Positions 1 through 5,722 of a DNA stretch of 5,722 bases are shown here, piece by piece. Position 1 is the first letter of the stretch. Every line of letters starts with the position of its first letter. The notes below the pieces were generated by a model. It did not search any database and was not told where the DNA came from. It worked only from the letters and a program-made list of their open reading frames with translations. The DNA comes from a virus (lineage: Duplodnaviria; Heunggongvirae; Uroviricota; Caudoviricetes), in IMG/VR virus record IMGVR_UViG_2695420503_000022; one strand, 5' to 3'. Made by a program: the position numbers and the translations under genes.

Positions 1-66
1 GCAACCCTGACAAAAGTTGGGCGGGATATTCTTGCGAAATCGACCGTTGCCGCCGTTATCGAATAA
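1..66 (+). pseudogene. Orphan 3' end of a second side-tail-fibre constant-region copy, ending at TAA 64..66 (left boundary off-window)
   Basis: Frame 1 reads [21 protein letters not shown]. Nt 1..65 are the exact reverse complement of 3972..4036 inside the minus-strand stf gene (...[26 protein letters not shown]...). Where the active gene continues TAC CTC (Y L), this copy has TAA followed by an A-run. Confidence 0.6.
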
Positions 67-90
67 AAAAAAAAAACGGAAACGGTAAAC
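56..90. other. Degenerate crossover-site relic of recombinant (inverted-state) type: Sc-side half-site, A-tract in place of the core, then the Sv'-side flank
   Basis: 56..65 TTATCGAATA equals the Sc-proximal half of the 3956..3981 site (reverse complement). 78..90 GGAAACGGTAAAC is identical to 897..909 (end of the 875..900 site plus first Sv' codons). The two matches are colinear with no gap, but the 12 nt between them are A11C instead of CCTCGGTTTACA. Confidence 0.55.
65..76. repeat. A12 homopolymer tract
   Basis: Twelve consecutive A directly visible; it occupies the position of the crossover-site core in the relic. Confidence 0.9.
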
Positions 91-139
91 TTTTGAACCT
101 TATCCCGCGGCGTTACATGGTCAATTTGATTCCATTTCC

Positions 140-439
140 ATGTTTTACCTTCTTCACTGCCTGCCTGGAAATATATCTACAAAAAGCTGTGTAATACGCA
201 ATGCGGCGCAGGCCTTAACTGACGATGGAACTCTATACGGAGCCACAATTCTTGGCGATGGAGTTGTGCACAATAGCTTCGGTCAAAAACTGATGCGCAT
301 TTACAATCAGAAAGGCATCTTTTCAAACACAAAAGATTCCGAAGAAGGCTTAACACATATACTCTCAGAGCATTTCGAGAATGTTAAAACCAAGGTTCAA
401 GGTACTGTAGTAATGTTTTCCGCTTCAGGGAAAAAATAG
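140..439 (+). CDS. Hypothetical 99-aa protein, unassigned; possible cargo/moron gene
   Basis: Only sizeable ORF in the 67..493 gap; stop TAG 437..439. No purine-rich Shine-Dalgarno within 15 nt of the ATG (tttgattccatttccATG). No recognisable family from the translation. Composition looks AT-richer than the tail-fibre genes. Confidence 0.3.
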   Translation: MFYLLHCLPGNISTKSCVIRNAAQALTDDGTLYGATILGDGVVHNSFGQKLMRIYNQKGIFSNTKDSEEGLTHILSEHFENVKTKVQGTVVMFSASGKK

Positions 440-446
440 CATCCAA

Positions 447-479
447 CCGCAGCACGTTCTTGCTTAAGACGTGCTGCGG
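447..479. terminator. Strong stem-loop (11-bp perfect stem ccgcagcacgt / acgtgctgcgg); probable terminator of the ancestral stf-tfa operon (minus strand)
   Basis: Perfect 11-bp inverted repeat with 11-nt loop. It lies 15 nt 3' of the tfa-remnant stop (494..496, minus) and 8 nt 3' of the ORF99 stop (plus). On the minus strand a T6 run follows about 10 nt after the stem; no T-run on the plus strand, so not a canonical intrinsic terminator in either direction. Confidence 0.4.
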
Positions 480-493
480 CATAATCCCAATGA

Positions 494-586
494 TTACTCC
501 CTGACAGGGTTCGTAGGCCACTCAATATCAGGTGCAGTTGATGTATCAACACGGTTCAGCAACACCCGATACTTTTTCCAGGCTTC
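494..586 (-). pseudogene. tfa: C-terminal remnant (~30 codons) of a third tail-fibre assembly (Tfa) gene, fused in frame behind the invertase remnant
   Basis: Minus-strand translation in the pin frame reads [30 protein letters not shown] (stop 494..496). It shares the E-W-x-x-Y ... RVDT ... EWP pattern with the C-termini of both in-window tfa genes ([25 protein letters not shown]; [27 protein letters not shown]) and matches my recollection of the lambda Tfa C-terminus. Confidence 0.7.
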
Positions 587-820
587 CACCACCAGCACGA
601 CAAGATGCCGCATACAGTGAACCAGTCAGTCCAGTTTTCAGACAACCAGTGCGTCACCTTTTTGAAGGCGCTTTAAAGCACGTTTTAATCCAGGTCGGCC
701 TGTCCTTGTTCCGCTTAATTTATCTTCAAATATTTGTTCATATCCTGCACAAACAAGAGCGTTTCGTTGCAGATCTGTATTCTGGTCATTTGTTGATACC
801 CTTACATAGCCAATCAGCAC
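587..820 (-). pseudogene. pin: Serine DNA invertase (Pin/Gin/Hin/Cin family) remnant: N-terminal ~78 codons with two in-frame TGA stops, 3' part deleted
   Basis: Translation [76 protein letters not shown] matches the invertase N-terminus as I recall it (MLIGYVRVSTNDQ...DTLVVWKLDRLGRSMKHLISLVGE), with TGA at 638..640 where Trp is expected and TGA at 626..628 where Arg is expected. Likely start is GTG 818..820 preceded by GGAG (the ORF track extends to another GTG at 844). The catalytic Ser in YVRVSTNDQ is present, but the rest of the catalytic domain and the C-terminal DNA-binding domain are absent. Confidence 0.8.
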
Positions 821-874
821 GCTGAATCTCCCGTCCAAAAGCACAAATCATGCCATACAGGCCAGAAACCGCCA

Positions 875-900
875 TTATCTAAAACCTCGGTTTACAGGAA
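875..900. other. 26-bp invertase crossover site (gix/pix-like), invertase-proximal
   Basis: TTATCTAAAACC TC GGTTTACAGGAA: imperfect dyad around a 2-bp core. It matches the gix/hix-type site as I recall it and matches the reverse complement of 3956..3981 at 22 of 26 positions. It is read in frame into the Sv' cassette. Confidence 0.8.
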
Positions 901-1914
901 ACGGTAAACAAGGCTGGTAACGCCGTTCAGCGTTCCGGCGATAAAATGACCGGAGAACTGAAAATTGGCACGGTGAATGCGCTGCGAATTTTCAATGATG
1001 CCTTCGGTCTTATTTTCCGTCGTTCAGAAGATTTTCTTCATTTCATTCCGACGGCTGAAGGACAAGGCGAAAACGGTGATATAGGCCCATTAAGGCCATT
1101 CGCTATAAATCTGAGAACAGGTGCTATATCTGTCAGCCACGGGGCCAAAATTGATGGTGGGCTGGCGCTTGGTACAGATAACGCACTGGGCGGTAATTCC
1201 ATTACTCTCGGAGATAACGACACTGGTATTAAACAGGGCGGCGACGGTGTCCTTTTATTCTATTCAAATGGACAACTGGCATTTGGGCTTCAACCCGCAT
1301 CTGCTGATTTTTATAAGCGGGTTGCATATATTCATCAGGGAATAATTCCTGATGGAAGTGGCGCATTTGCAGACCAGTTGAATAATGCCACCGCGCCTTT
1401 TGTTCAGACGCAGTTTGCCTGGAATCCCACTCCTGGTGGTCATTACGTGCCGATAGTTAAGGGCTTGTCCATTCGCAATGGACAGGGCTATCCCGGCGCG
1501 GTCAGCTTTGGGTATTTACTGACAGAACAGTATGGATTTCCGGTTCCATGTATTCATATGCGTGGCGATGGCGGTAATGATGCTTTATGGCAGTTTAACC
1601 CGAACGATAAATCCTTTATTTCACCGGGTGCTCTTATTGCGGGTGGCGTCCGTTATAACACCGATGGAAATATATTTGGTGGGTGCTGGGGTTCAAACTT
1701 AAATGATTACCTGAATAGTTCTTTTATCAGAAATGTGCGTCTGGGAGGCAGACGTTCTGACACATTATATCGCGGAGGACTTTGCGAACCAGGTAATGGT
1801 CATGTGACAACAGGATTGCAAATTATTGGTGAGGTTGATGGAGATGACTGGATGGTGTCACGACCACTACAAAAATACATTTCTGGTAACTGGTATAACG
1901 TTGAACAGGCATAG
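889..1914 (+). CDS. Alternative tail-fibre C-terminal receptor-binding cassette (Sv'), promoterless and start-less in this orientation
   Basis: Open frame runs continuously from the crossover core (GGT TTA CAG GAA ACG ...) to TAG 1912..1914; the ATG at 946 is in this frame but probably incidental. Shares ALGGNSI[TV]LGDNDTG[IF]KQ[GN]GDG and a C-terminal QKYI[SN]G[NT]WYNV with the expressed cassette. Inversion would fuse it to the stf constant region. Confidence 0.8.
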   Translation, partial: GLQETVNKAGNAVQRSGDKMTGELKIGTVNALRIFNDAFGLIFRRSEDFLHFIPTAEGQGENGDIGPLRPFAINLRTGAISVSHGAKIDGGLALGTDNALGGNSITLGDNDTGIKQGGDGVLLFYSNGQLAFGLQPASADFYKRVAYIHQGIIPDGSGAFADQLNNATAPFVQTQFAWNPTPGGHYVPIVKGLSIRNGQGYPGAVSFGYLLTEQYGFPVPCIHMRGDGGNDALWQFNPNDKSFISPGALIAGGVRYNTDGNIFGGCWGSNLNDYLNSSFIRNVRLGGRRSDTLYRGGLCEPGNGHVTTGLQIIGEVDGDDWMVSRPLQKYISGNWYNVEQA

Positions 1915-1929
1915 CCATCAGGAGAATAT

Positions 1930-2457
1930 ATGCAACATCTGAAAAATATTACCGCCGGAAACCCCAAAACCATTGAGCAGTATCAGCTTACGAAAAAAGC
2001 TGGCGTTATCTGGCTATATACAGAAGACGGTAAAAACTGGTATGACGAATTAAAAAACTTTCAGGATGATACTTTAAAAATAGCTTATGACCAGAAGGGG
2101 ATTATTCGTTGTATTGAGAAAGACGTATCAACACTTAACCCTGACGGGTTAAGTGTTGTTGAGTTACCGAATATAACAGCCAACCGTCGCGCCGATATCT
2201 CGGGAAACTGGAAGTTTCTGGATGGTAAAGTAGTAAAGCGGGAATATACAAAACAGGAACTGCAACAGCAGGCAGAGTTACAAAAAGCCGCTTTGCTTTC
2301 CGAAGCGGAGTCTGTGATTCAACCGCTGGAACGTGCTGTCAGACTGAATATGGCAACTGATGAGGAACGCACACGACTGGAATCATGGGAACGCTACAGC
2401 GTTATGGTCAGCCGTGTGGATACTGCAAAGCCTGAATGGCCACAGAAACCAGAATAA
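1930..2457 (+). CDS. tfa: Tail-fibre assembly chaperone partnered with Sv' (Tfa/U' family)
   Basis: 175 aa; AGGAG at 1920..1924 five nt before the ATG. N-terminus [38 protein letters not shown] is a close paralogue of the minus-strand tfa and Mu U-like; typical Tfa C-terminal motif. Confidence 0.85.
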
Positions 2458-2466
2458 CAACAAATT

Positions 2467-2486
2467 AAGGCCCGTACGGGCCTTTT
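2467..2486. terminator. Bidirectional intrinsic terminator between the convergent tfa genes
   Basis: aaGGCCCgtacGGGCCtttt: GC stem with a 4-nt loop, T-run on the plus strand and a T-rich tail (aatttgttg) on the minus strand. It sits in the 30-bp gap between stop 2455..2457 and stop 2488..2490. Confidence 0.55.
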
Positions 2487-2487
2487 C

Positions 2488-3021
2488 TTATTCTGGTGGT
2501 TCCGGGAATGTTACAGGAAGAACCGAGGTATCAGTTGTCTCAACCTGTTGCACGTATCGCATCCAGTTCATCAGTTGCTGTCTGTCTGAATCAGTGATAA
2601 TCCCCAAAGTAAGCTGTGTTTGCCAGAACTGCGTTTTTTCTCTGGCCTGCTGTAATAATATTTTTTTCTGGTTTTCCGTCTGTAGGCGCAACTCTTCTTC
2701 GGTATATACACGTTTAATGACTGCGCCATCTTTAAACATCCATTTACCTGAGTCGTCAGCACGCCGGTTGGCGGTAATATCAGGAATCTCAACGACGCTA
2801 TAACCTTCAGGGTTAAGTGTGGAGGCATCTTTGGTTATGGCAACAATAATATTATTTTCATCGTAAACAATCTTTATGGTGTCTGGCTGAAAGTTTTTCA
2901 CTTCCTCATACCAGTTTTTTTCGTCCTCAGAGTAAAGCCAGATAACTCCGTGTTTCTTTGTTAACTCATACTGTTCCAGTGTTTTAGCATTACCCGCTTT
3001 TATGTTCTTTAAGTGCATCAT
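2488..3021 (-). CDS. tfa: Tail-fibre assembly chaperone for the currently expressed fibre (Tfa/U family)
   Basis: 177 aa; its ATG (3019..3021) lies one nt after the stf stop (3023..3025), indicating translational coupling. N-terminus [59 protein letters not shown] resembles Mu U / Tfa proteins as I recall them. Confidence 0.9.
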
Positions 3022-3022
3022 A

Positions 3023-5722
3023 TTAAACGCTCGCTACATTATACCAGGTGCCATTTATATACTTTTGAACGGGTCTGTAATAAACGCCCGCTATATTATC
3101 GGCAGAGTTAGACCCTGTATCCTGAACATTAATACCAGACAATACATGACCTGAAGGGCACCGGAAATACCATGTTTGCCAGTTGTTCACTCCATAATAT
3201 TGCTGTGAACCAAGTCGAACATCTTTCACATAACGGGAATCAAAGTTACCGTAATCCGAGGGGTTAACACGCCCTGTAATATTTATGGTTTTATTACTTT
3301 GAATGCTTCCGGAGACAAAGCGCATAACATGGACGTTATTAGCATAAACATCCAGATTACCATCGCCATTTTGTTTAAAGCCCGTGTCATTATCACCCAA
3401 TACAATCGAATTACCGCCAAGAGCACTGGATGTTCCGATACCCAGTGTACCATTCAGTTGACCACCAGATAACGGCAGTGCACCAACATCTCCTGCTGAA
3501 GGTTTTCTGGTGGTGGTGTAAAATTCGGACCAGTCGGCTTCAAAACCATAACCATCACGGGCTGAACGATAAAAAACACCGCCATTTTTATAATTAATCC
3601 GAAACTGAGCTGCAGGACAACTTCCTTCTCCCATATAAAAATGAATAATTAACGTTGATGCACCACTAATAGTTGCGTTATAGGCTCCGCTACTCCAGTT
3701 CCATCCAACTGCTTTATCATTCGCAACGGTGCTTCCTGTTTTCCCTAAGGCAAACGCACCAACATGACTTGCTTTTAATGTGATATCGGAGGAACCATCA
3801 AAAGCCACATTGCTTATTTTCCTGGCAGTTTTTAATTTTGCAGCTGTAGAAGCATTGCCGGATAGTTCACCAGAAAGGCCACCGCTGAATGTTTGTCGAT
3901 TAGTCCAGGTATTCGCTGTACTGAGTAACGGTATTTTCTCCCCGCTTGTGCCGAGTTCTCGTAAACCGAGGTATTCGATAACGGCGGCAACGGTCGATTT
4001 CGCAAGAATATCCCGCCCAACTTTTGTCAGGGTTGCCAGACTGGCAACATCATTCCCCGTAAAATACGGAAACCTGTCTGCCGCAGTAGCAAGCCCGGCC
4101 AGCGCCGTCAGGGTGGCATCTTTCGGTTGCTTACCCGCAAGCGCGTTAGTCATGGTGGTCGCAAAATTCGGGTCGTTGCCCAACGCCGCAGCCAGCTCGT
4201 TCAGCGTATTCAGTGCGTCAGGCGACGAGTCCACGAGGGCAGCGATCGCAGCCATAACATAAGCCGTGCTTGCGATTTGGGTATTATTCGTTCCCTGTCG
4301 CGCAGTTGGTGTTGTTGGCGTTCCGGTCAGTGCAGGACTATTTAAGGGCGCTTTCTTGTTCGTTTCACCCATTACCGCCTTAACCGCTTTTGGCGTTGCC
4401 GCCAGTGACTCGGAAGTGCTGTTGGTCGCACTGCTGAGCTGTACTATCCCCTTTTTCGTCGTGCTCGCATCCTCCAGCGCCACGGCGGATGCAATATCCT
4501 CTGCCCGTTTTGCTGCTGTCTCGGCGCGCGTTGCCGCGGATTCCGCCGTACTTTTGCTCTGAGCTGCCGCCGTCACACTACCAGCTGCCTCTGATGCTTT
4601 CATTGTTGCTGTCGTGGCACTACCTTTCGCTGCTGACGCTTGTCTGGTCGCCTCATCTTTTGAAGCAGACGCAGATGATGCCGATGACGCCGCTGAACTG
4701 GCTGACGATGCGGCTGCCGCCTTAGAGGAAGCAGCATTGTCTGCTGAAGTCTTTGCATTTGTTTCAGAGGTTTTTGCTGCAGAAGCAGACCTCGCTGCTG
4801 CAGTGGCTTGCTCAGTGGCTTTGCCAGCCTTCGTTGTGGCTGTTGAAGCGGATGATGCGGCGCTTTCTGCCGATTTTCCGGCGGCGGTGGCACTGGCTGA
4901 GGCCTGCCCGGCACTTGTTGACGCGGCACTGGCAGACGACGCAGCCGCTGTTTTTGAGCCTGCCGCAGCCGAGGCGCTCTGTCCCGCTGCCGTTTCAGAA
5001 GACCTGGCGTTTGTCTCAGACGTCTTTGCCGCCTTCGCGGAATTGCCTGCCGCCGTTGCCGAGGAAGCGGCACTACTGGCGCTTGATGATGCGTTCGTTT
5101 CTGATGATTTCGCTGCCTCTTTTGAGGCCGCCGCATCCCGGGCTGAGGTGGCTGCTTCTGACGCCTTCGTGGTCGCGGCGGATGCAGAAGTGGCTGCTGA
5201 TTGTTGTGACGCTGCCGCATTCGTTTCTGACGTTTTCGCCGCAGCGGCACTGGTAGCTGCCGCGCTTTTTGAGGACTCTGCAGCAGCAGCACTTTTCGAT
5301 GCTTCACTGGCCTTTGTTGATGCCGTTCCTGCGCTGGAAGACGCTGACTGAGCCGACGACGCGGCCTGTCCGGCTGACGTGCTGGCGGCACGTGCTGAGG
5401 CTGCAGCATCGGTTGCATGAGTTACCGCCTCGCTGGCTGATGCACTGGCATCGCTGGCTGATTTTTTCGCGGCTGCCGTATTCTGTGCAACCGCGGAGGC
5501 GTTACGTGACACTTCTTCCACCATCTGCTCAAAGCGGCGCAGTGCCTCCGGTCGGACATCATCCTCCGTCATGGCACCGAGAAAATCATTCAGCGTACCT
5601 GGTCTGGAACCTTCATAGACGGTAATGGTCCCGGCATGTGAAGGCGGAAAACCTTCAACCAGCAGGGTGACGCTGTACTGACCATGCTCAACATCCATGC
5701 TGTAACGTCCGGCTTCATCCGG
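3023..5722 (-). CDS. stf: Side tail fibre protein (lambda Stf-like), 5'-partial: constant region (3970..5722) fused through the crossover site to the Sv cassette (3023..3967)
   Basis: The open frame continues past the first in-window Met to the window edge (...[37 protein letters not shown]...). N-terminal domain and the KTSETNA-containing Ala/Ser-rich shaft resemble lambda Stf / E. coli StfR as I recall them. The C-terminal part carries the [13 protein letters not shown] motif and ends ...[14 protein letters not shown]. Confidence 0.9.
3956..3981. other. 26-bp invertase crossover site inside the stf coding sequence (codons I-E-Y-L-G-L-R-E)
   Basis: Plus strand TTCTCGTAAACC GA GGTATTCGATAA; its reverse complement TTATCGAATACC TC GGTTTACGAGAA matches the 875..900 site at 22/26 with an identical TC core and lies in inverted orientation to it. 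Confidence 0.8.
3972..4036. repeat. Right arm of a 65-bp perfect inverted repeat (left arm 1..65)
   Basis: Reverse complement of 3972..4036 is identical to 1..65; identity breaks at position 66 versus 3971. Confidence 0.85.
4530..5500 (-). repeat. Low-complexity Ala/Ser/Thr-rich periodic repeat region encoding the fibre shaft (approximate bounds)
   Basis: The protein shows reiterated A-A-K-T/S-S-E-T-N-A units and A/S/T runs. At DNA level, degenerate ~27-bp repeats of the type gcNgcaaaaacNtcNgaaacaaatgc (minus sense) recur at about 4747, 5030, 5095 and 5225. The GC-rich, stop-poor sequence generates long spurious ORFs in other frames. Confidence 0.7.

Follow-up and report, generated by a model that had tools for sequence, protein, structure and literature searches.

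Organization of the side tail-fibre locus

The window, that is, the entire 5,722-nt stretch of DNA analyzed here, carries a side tail-fibre gene, stf, whose ORF occupies positions 3023..5698 on the minus strand. The constant part of this gene, Sc (3982..5722, minus strand), extends past the right end of the window, with approximately 50 N-terminal codons absent; in strains 4/0 and 4/1-1, the complete gene has a product of 941 or 968 aa. Sc matched both PF08400 (phage_tail_N; E 2.6e-38, profile positions 51-134) and PHROG tail-fibre families, and in WS3294A, 4/0, and EC958, J and lom precede stf, giving the order J-lom-stf. The variable C-terminal cassette Sv (3023..3955, minus strand) is currently in frame with Sc, as determined by in silico frame analysis. 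Residues 66-161 of Sv are a close match to Mu S' (PDB 8ju3, E 7.6e-54), and its C-terminus resembles Mu S (5yvq_A). The start of tfa, encoding a tail-fibre assembly chaperone co-oriented with Sv (2488..3021, minus strand; 177 aa; PF02413, E 6e-32), is 1 nt past the stf stop codon; the protein matches Mu U (5yvq_B, E 4e-69), and the counterpart of the gene at the DNA level is Mu U'.

A silent alternative C-terminal cassette, Sv' (901..1914, plus strand), was recognized from frame analysis and from matches to PHROG tail-fibre families (E 7e-73), and its C-terminus also resembles Mu S. It is accompanied by its own chaperone gene, tfa' (1930..2457, plus strand; 175 aa; PF02413, E 9e-35), which matches full-length Mu U (E 2.8e-86) and is 56% identical to tfa in a pairwise comparison. 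The two PF02413 chaperone genes are both intact ORFs in a mirror arrangement. Sv and Sv' have just two short motifs in common, and their matches fall on different parts of Mu S/S', a dissimilarity that would fit, rather than prove, different receptor specificities. Between the convergent chaperone genes lies a G+C-rich hairpin that is followed by a T-rich tail whichever strand is read (2467..2484), a candidate bidirectional terminator, proposed from a consensus scan, that would end whichever cassette is expressed. This hairpin alone was notable in the terminator scan, which otherwise returned about as many sites as shuffled sequence; the promoter scan returned fewer than shuffled sequence, and no Rfam hit was obtained in the window. 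Long ORFs on both the plus and minus strands at 4600..5418 were also considered as genes and rejected, given that they overlap the stf repeat region on the opposite strand or in another frame, and they were treated as by-products of the Ala/Ser-rich composition of these repeats.

On the far side of the silent cassette is the remnant of a gin-type serine invertase gene (638..820, minus strand), which matches only the N-terminal part of PF00239. Over codons 1-60, identity to Mu Gin is 95%; W61 is replaced by TGA, and in an alignment to Mu the homology stops near position 630. In RefSeq, this remnant is labelled 'recombinase family protein', with a length of 60 aa. No functional serine invertase gene was found beside the segment or elsewhere in the window, where gin is limited to these 60 codons.

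Crossover sites and inversion in silico

Two gix-like sites of 26 bp delimit the cassettes. Site L (875..900), between the gin remnant and Sv', has the sequence TTATCTAAAACC-TC-GGTTTACAGGAA, with its TC core at 887-888. Site R (3956..3981) lies where the constant and variable parts meet within the stf reading frame; its reverse complement is TTATCGAATACC-TC-GGTTTACGAGAA, so that the core appears as GA at 3968-3969 on the plus strand. Pairwise alignment indicated that the sites are in inverted orientation and identical at 22 of 26 positions, with the 2-bp TC core common to both. Both consist of 12-bp half-sites that form an imperfect dyad, with self-complementarity at 14/26 positions for site L and 18/26 for site R, and a repeat search of the window detected an inverted repeat spanning both (869-900 / 3956-3987; 32 nt, 84%). 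When the window was queried with Mu gix, allowing up to 3 mismatches, 875..900 was the sole match, with 1 mismatch (25/26), compared to 0 matches in 200 shuffles, and alignment to the annotated boundary of the Mu G segment confirmed this single mismatch. The half-sequences of site R are those of the EC958 Phi4/Phi1 sites listed in Table 3 of PMC4134206, where the site consensus was built on Mu, P1, e14, p15B, and S. boydii, and a sequence match indicated that site R is identical to one site of EC958 prophage Phi1.

Inversion of 887..3969 in silico preserved the reading frame and changed the length of the in-window fibre from 891 to 918 aa; the first 579 aa were unchanged, and a 312-aa tail (Sv) was exchanged for one of 339 aa (Sv'). 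A preliminary description of this DNA, made from the sequence alone, had proposed two inverted sites with identical cores, one of them inside stf; a lambda-Stf-like constant region; and two in-frame cassettes, each with a cognate chaperone, such that inversion would swap a C-terminus of ~310 residues. The site alignment, the position of 3956..3981 within the minus-strand ORF, the PF08400 match together with the J-lom-stf order in relatives, the PF02413 and Mu U matches, and the in silico flip are all in agreement with that proposal. The present orientation is likewise as described, with Sc-Sv and minus-strand tfa forming a continuous reading unit.

At the left end of the window, positions 1..90 have the appearance of a chimeric junction, and no match spanning either of its joints was found in complete E. 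coli genomes or in genome, viral, and metagenome contigs. The possibilities that this stretch is an additional, third crossover site or arose by recombination with a quasi-site were considered and rejected, because strand exchange at the core cannot turn the 11 central bases into A's and because the 90/91 joint resembles no site. For the neighboring 99-aa ORF (140..439), all 8 of 8 matching contigs either have ordinary methyltransferase sequence upstream or end before that point.

Natural inversion of the segment in E. coli

Comparison of strains 4/0 and 4/1-1, which belong to one isolate series, demonstrated natural inversion with exchange of half-sites. Their loci are identical over 10,600 bp (~10.6 kb) except for one block of 3,065 bp, which is an exact reverse complement with 0 mismatches, and the breakpoints fall inside the shared CCTCGGTTTAC, with the half-sites swapped. 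Among complete E. coli genomes, the flipped Sc-Sv' junction was found in 243 and the native Sc-Sv junction in ~226, counted as matches with at least 80% coverage and possibly including a few related loci. Additionally, in the WS3294A record, which is 99.96-100% identical to the window, an untrimmed terminal overlap gives two copies of the locus, one per orientation, and the hybrid sites agree with expectation. Artefactual duplications in deposited 'complete' genomes, such as that in WS3294A, can arise from cultures of mixed orientation.

The segment is in fact the Phi4 locus of the ST131 strain EC958, already known since 2014, and is ordinary. Forde et al. (2014, PLoS One 9:e104400, PMC4134206) described in prophage Phi4 a 3106-bp invertible tail-fibre segment with an invertase truncated so that the HTH domain is missing, and reported both orientations, ~50% mixed, in PacBio reads of one culture. 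The window has the same four half-sites and the same flanking genes as Phi4 and is 99.5% identical to it over the segment and 99.6% over the left flank. In contrast, the EC958 reference is in the opposite orientation, and hence has hybrid versions of the sites, and the constant part of stf differs at 57 of 1762 bases (96.8% identity). The preliminary description had made its reading depend on detection of both orientations, and both have now been seen in 4/0 compared to 4/1-1, in WS3294A, across the 243 and 226 genomes, and in the published PacBio data (PMC4134206).

Given the truncated invertase gene, the locus might instead be read as a set of Mu-like G-segment relics that no longer invert. 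Consistent with this, gin is reduced to 60 codons ending in a premature stop, and the truncation is old, as one deletion junction is common to 535 of 5,426 complete E. coli genomes (~10%). However, the two orientations are about equally frequent among near-identical loci, the exact inversion that separates isolates 4/0 and 4/1-1 argues against a single ancient flipped clade, and both orientations coexist in one assembly (WS3294A) and in one PacBio culture (PMC4134206), making the loss of inversion exceedingly improbable.

Inversion could also proceed by RecA-dependent homologous recombination between short inverted repeats, with no site-specific invertase involved, and both the lack of an invertase gene beside the segment and the placement of the sites in an imperfect inverted repeat of 32-36 bp would accommodate this. 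However, the perfect identity between the two site arms spans only 11 bp, CCTCGGTTTAC, which is far under the length efficiently used by RecA recombination. Moreover, the arms are a near-perfect match to the Gin/Cin/Pin crossover sequence, ST131 genomes encode an intact homologue of Gin, one of whose own sites is identical, and the ~50% mixture of orientations in one culture (PMC4134206) implies a high rate. We therefore regard a RecA route as very unlikely.

Proposed inversion in trans, the putative enhancer, and related switches

Based on the data presented above, we estimate a probability of about 90% that 875..3981 is a Mu-G-type invertible segment, lying within a side tail-fibre operon that belongs to a lambdoid prophage of E. 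coli, and flipped by a serine invertase acting in trans. Since the adjacent gin gene consists of 60 codons followed by a stop, flipping requires an invertase supplied from elsewhere. In such a mechanism, a Gin/Pin-family serine invertase would bind both inverted 26-bp sites and, with the assistance of Fis on an enhancer that probably persists in the gin 5' stump, would cleave both at the central TC, after which strand rotation and religation would turn the ~3.08-kb segment around. Inversion in this way connects the constant 5' portion of stf, on the minus strand to the right of 3981, in frame with either Sv and tfa, as at present, or Sv' and tfa', and the virions or fibre proteins produced by the prophage would bear one of two putative receptor-binding tips, each with its own chaperone. 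The enzyme would be provided by another prophage, for which the candidate in ST131 is the Gin homologue of the P2-like EC958 prophage Phi1; this gene is intact, and its 199-aa product, WP_000905061.1, is 85% identical to Mu Gin. Forde et al. likewise proposed that the Phi1 invertase acts in trans on Phi4 (PMC4134206). Inversion of e14 by PinQ, the invertase of a different cryptic prophage, is an experimentally established precedent for such action in trans (PMC12529663).

The preliminary description had called this switch complete, which is borne out for both sites, both cassettes, and probably the enhancer, but not for the invertase, as no functional gene for it is adjacent. The locus has the inverted dyad sites, the known site sequence, both orientations, and the in-frame C-termini with chaperones that characterize invertible segments of the Gin/Hin/Pin/Cin type, and without a functional serine invertase gene alongside it is an orphan, trans-dependent member. 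A Fis-dependent recombinational enhancer (sis) is predicted at 735..800, in the retained 5' end of gin and at a distance of 88-152 bp from the site L centre, its exact position being presumed from the Hin enhancer sequence. This interval differs from Mu at 2 positions. The enhancer of the Hin system is 65 bp long and ~100 bp from the hix site (PMC3798978), and the title of Kahmann et al. (1985), as cited there, places that of Mu 'within the invertase gene'. These similarities suggest that the enhancer probably survives in the gin stump, although the conservation of 735..800 could reflect the coding history of gin alone. It is conceivable, though rather unlikely in our estimation, that the stump has been kept for its Fis-bound enhancer and that the orphan switch is set by the invertase of an unrelated prophage, P2-like or other. 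If so, the host could also benefit from control across prophages, for instance where Stf variants block receptors as StfE2 does. Since all 535 orphan loci have one junction, they provide no independent gin truncations for testing enhancer retention.

The consequence of flipping might also be something other than a change in virion host range, with Stf and Tfa acting inside the cell, for instance in receptor blocking, or with the inversion being selectively neutral. There is precedent for such a role in the e14 P segment, which has been shown experimentally to be inverted in trans by PinQ of another cryptic prophage, creating StfE2, which blocks T2 adsorption (PMC12529663). Moreover, the prophage is perhaps defective, with lom split by ISEc12 in the ST131 copies. 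In contrast, both cassettes and both chaperone genes are intact ORFs, as expected of working tips, the end copy in the WS3294A record has an apparently intact set of tail genes, and no data tie the locus to defence. We consider this explanation improbable, and infer that flipping by an invertase in trans may alter host range.

In comparison with known switches, the locus has the architecture of the Mu G segment, as had been proposed from the sequence, and is homologous to it. The interval 630..915 is 91.6% identical to the 5' end of Mu gin plus gix, the gene order is the same, and the segment is ~3.08 kb here and ~3.06 kb in Mu. Additionally, U is the counterpart of tfa' and U' that of tfa, and S' is matched by part of Sv. 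It differs from Mu in that the constant part is the lambda-Stf-type side fibre of a lambdoid prophage, rather than S, in that Sv' is without a DNA-level match to Mu, and in the loss of gin after codon 60. The Mu reference is in the G(+) state, whereas the window is in a G(-)-like state. The e14 P segment, served by Pin and in trans by PinQ and PinR of Qin and Rac, is likewise an stf/tfa serine-invertase switch in a defective E. coli prophage, but is 1797 bp long and has kept its own pin gene, a likeness that we draw by description. Also by description, the C segment of phage P1 (Cin) and the Min system of plasmid p15B belong to one crossover-site family with this locus, and in them, too, fibre C-termini are exchanged; p15B, with its multiple sites, reaches a shufflon-like complexity, in contrast with the two functional sites of the window.

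The switching of fibre tips by Gin-type invertases has been in the textbooks ever since Mu and P1, and because of this, and because the locus itself has been published as EC958 Phi4, the switch adds little biologically. A trans-dependent switch in about one tenth of complete E. coli genomes is a modest but testable case of cross-talk between prophages. The result also confirms that a genuine programmed inversion switch can be recovered to the exact base pair by reading raw sequence, at a locus whose silent cassettes are carried in RefSeq as pseudogenes or 'hypothetical protein'.

Crossover sites and gene arrangement

The preliminary description placed two 26-bp imperfect-dyad sites at 875..900 and 3956..3981, and comparison showed these positions to be exact. 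Site L (875..900) reads TTATCTAAAACC-TC-GGTTTACAGGAA, and the reverse complement of site R (3956..3981) reads TTATCGAATACC-TC-GGTTTACGAGAA; both are imperfect dyads, identical at 22 of 26 positions and with the same core. The pair was also detected as a 32-nt inverted repeat, site L differs by a single base from the Mu gix at the annotated G-segment boundary, and no gix-type match was found in shuffled versions of the window. In-silico inversion of 887..3969 preserved the stf frame, so that the earlier claim that both cassettes are in frame holds: the first 579 in-window residues of stf are common to both orientations, followed by a variable tail of either 312 residues (Sv, in the present orientation) or 339 residues (Sv', once inverted).

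The window comprises the tail-fibre end of a lambdoid prophage of E. coli. Across positions 91..5722, identity is 99.96-100% with strain WS3294A and about 98.8% with many ST131 genomes; in these genomes, the counterpart is found downstream of J and lom and close to trpA-yciE-ompW. The main gene, stf, occupies 3023..5698 on the minus strand and continues past the right edge. The lambda-Stf-type domain PF08400 ('prophage tail fibre N-terminal') matches its N-terminus from profile position 51, and therefore approximately 50 stf codons lie outside the window (in related genomes the full-length protein has 941 or 968 aa). Next in minus-strand reading order is the chaperone gene tfa (3021..2488, minus strand), separated from the convergent tfa' (1930..2457, plus strand) by a hairpin (2484..2467) that could act as a terminator for whichever cassette is expressed. 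The silent cassette Sv' (901..1914, plus strand) lies between tfa' and site L, placing the two cassette and chaperone pairs in mirror image. The Ala/Ser/Thr-rich part of stf (4600..5420) contains degenerate repeats, spaced mostly at multiples of 21 nt, and its composition gives rise to long but spurious reading frames, both in the other frames of this strand and on the opposite one (e.g., 4614..5351, plus, and 4600..5418, minus).

Several parts of the window are related to Mu. The 5' end of Mu gin together with gix is 91.6% identical at the DNA level to 630..915. Along its whole length, the tfa' product matches Mu chaperone U, whose structure is solved (E 2.8e-86), and that of tfa, which is 56% identical to tfa', matches the same structure with E 4e-69; at the DNA level tfa aligns with Mu U'. 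A close match to Mu S' (PDB 8ju3, E 7.6e-54) covers residues 66-161 of Sv, and a Mu-S-like C-terminal domain is found at the ends of both Sv and Sv', which have only two short motifs in common. With Mu as the reference, the state of the segment is G(-)-like. The window therefore carries a Mu-G-type module, but its constant region is of the lambda-Stf type, and the Mu and PF08400 matches bear out the earlier proposal that the former was grafted onto the latter. A switch of this kind is well known and the locus has already been published in detail; it will not surprise specialists and opens no long-standing questions.

Natural inversion of the segment

Four lines of evidence concur that the segment inverts naturally. 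First, the loci of 4/0 (urinary infection) and 4/1-1 (faeces), two isolates from one Swedish series, are identical across 10,600 bp save for a central 3,065-bp block that is an exact reverse complement, with 0 mismatches. Both breakpoints lie in the shared CCTCGGTTTAC, with the outer half-sites exchanged, as expected for exchange at the core. Second, 5,426 complete E. coli genomes were surveyed with a 600-nt query over the predicted flipped junction between the constant part of stf (Sc) and Sv'; at a coverage of at least 80%, the flipped Sc-Sv' junction was present in 243 and the native Sc-Sv junction in 226. Third, both ends of the WS3294A record (NZ_CP035819.1, deposited as 'complete, circular') lie in the same prophage, leaving an untrimmed terminal overlap of ~16.5 kb that spans the tail genes. 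Outside the segment these copies do not differ; the segment itself is oppositely oriented in them and has the expected hybrid sites, and the copy at the record start contains frameshifts. Evidently the sequenced culture was of mixed orientation, and the overlap is an artefactual duplication of the public record for which the switch is apparently responsible. Fourth, this locus has been described as prophage Phi4 of EC958 (Forde et al. 2014, PMC4134206): its invertible segment measures 3106 bp, its site sequences are the same, its invertase is truncated, and one culture yielded PacBio contigs in the alternative orientation. At the coordinates given there, the window is 99.5% identical to EC958 across the segment, in inverted orientation. 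These orientation data contradict the possibility that the switch is a dead fossil.

A further detail, separate from the switch itself, concerns the left end of the window. Over 1..65 this end repeats, perfectly and in inverted orientation, the last stretch of the constant part of stf as far as the site's outer 10 bases (3972..4036); 11 A's then stand exactly at the place of the central CCTCGGTTTAC and are followed by CGGAAACGGTAAAC, 14 nt corresponding to the start of Sv' with one change. The joint at 90/91 is abrupt and leads into the middle of a methyltransferase gene. The stretch 1..90 has the appearance of a damaged duplicate of the flipped Sc-Sv' junction, joined to unrelated DNA. Neither joint was found in complete E. 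coli genomes or in the genome, viral and metagenome contigs searched. Strand exchange was rejected as its origin, since it cannot yield such a product; the stretch is probably the chimeric end of a contig assembled from a mixed-orientation culture.

Truncated gin and the source of the invertase

The gene adjoining site L retains codons 1-60 of Mu Gin (95% identical), including the catalytic serine region. In this stump (820..638, minus strand), W61 is replaced by TGA and a further in-frame TGA stands three codons on; homology extends to ~630, a few codons past W61, before giving way to unrelated DNA. The stump lacks the remainder of the catalytic domain as well as the DNA-binding domain and so cannot be the invertase, and flipping must therefore be catalysed in trans. 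This deletion junction recurs in 535 of the 5,426 complete E. coli genomes, implying a single old deletion event. In EC958, the P2-like prophage Phi1 encodes an intact Gin homologue of 199 aa that shares 85% identity with Mu Gin, and has one crossover site of its own that is identical to site R. The Phi1 enzyme has been proposed as the flipping agent in that strain (Forde et al. 2014, PMC4134206), and trans action between cryptic prophages has been demonstrated experimentally for PinQ on e14 (PMC12529663). Inversion by RecA-mediated recombination between the sites is unlikely, given that perfect identity between the arms is only 11 bp and that the same genomes carry a matching invertase and site.

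By analogy with the established Gin/Hin mechanism, cleavage would occur at the central dinucleotide of the sites, inversion would depend on a Fis-bound enhancer, and the invertase would be supplied by another prophage. The enhancer of Hin and Gin systems, 65 bp long and bound by Fis, sits within the invertase gene, ~100 bp away from one of the crossover sites (PMC3798978; Kahmann et al. 1985 cited there). The corresponding stretch, at about 735..800, is retained here and differs from Mu at two positions. Its exact placement follows the Hin enhancer sequence and is putative. As read from the sequence, this putative enhancer fits a switch that is complete in cis but enzyme-less. That the stump has been maintained for its enhancer, making this a widespread orphan switch controlled by the invertase of an unrelated prophage, strikes us as improbable, but would be moderately interesting if true.

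The precedent of Mu and P1 suggests that the two fibre tips may confer different host ranges. Alternatively, the switch may have a role other than virion host range, for example in host defence, as with StfE2, or its flipping may be neutral in a decaying prophage; this would affect the pay-off of inversion and leave the mechanism unaffected.

Methyltransferase side and annotation

Beyond the gin stump lie a fragment from the 3' end of a third tail-fibre assembly gene (598..494, minus strand; repeated stretch 445..588) and, oriented against the tail genes, a class I SAM-dependent methyltransferase gene represented by its 3' part (91..439, plus strand). At full length in related genomes, the methyltransferase gene encodes 222 aa (PHROG 2132, function unknown). 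The 99-aa ORF at 140..439 is no more than an internal ATG-to-stop piece of this gene. In full genomes, a second tfa-3' copy of ~145 bp, ~90% identical, lies beyond the far end of the methyltransferase gene (e.g., 726..870 of L003, a related locus), so that the methyltransferase resembles a cassette set between direct tfa-3' repeats. Between its stop codon and the tfa fragment, a hairpin at 449..480 with an 11-bp perfect stem (CCGCAGCACGT ... ACGTGCTGCGG) is followed a few bases downstream on the minus strand by a T-run; it is likely a terminator, as predicted from these features, and was not among the results of a consensus terminator scan.

The switch goes unrecognised by automatic annotation. 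In RefSeq, the silent cassette is labelled 'hypothetical protein', 'tail fiber protein, missing N-terminus' or a 'frameshifted' pseudogene (in L001, from WS3294A, and the related loci L003, L004 and L014), and the expressed full-length stf is labelled a pseudogene in EC958 and in the end copy of WS3294A.
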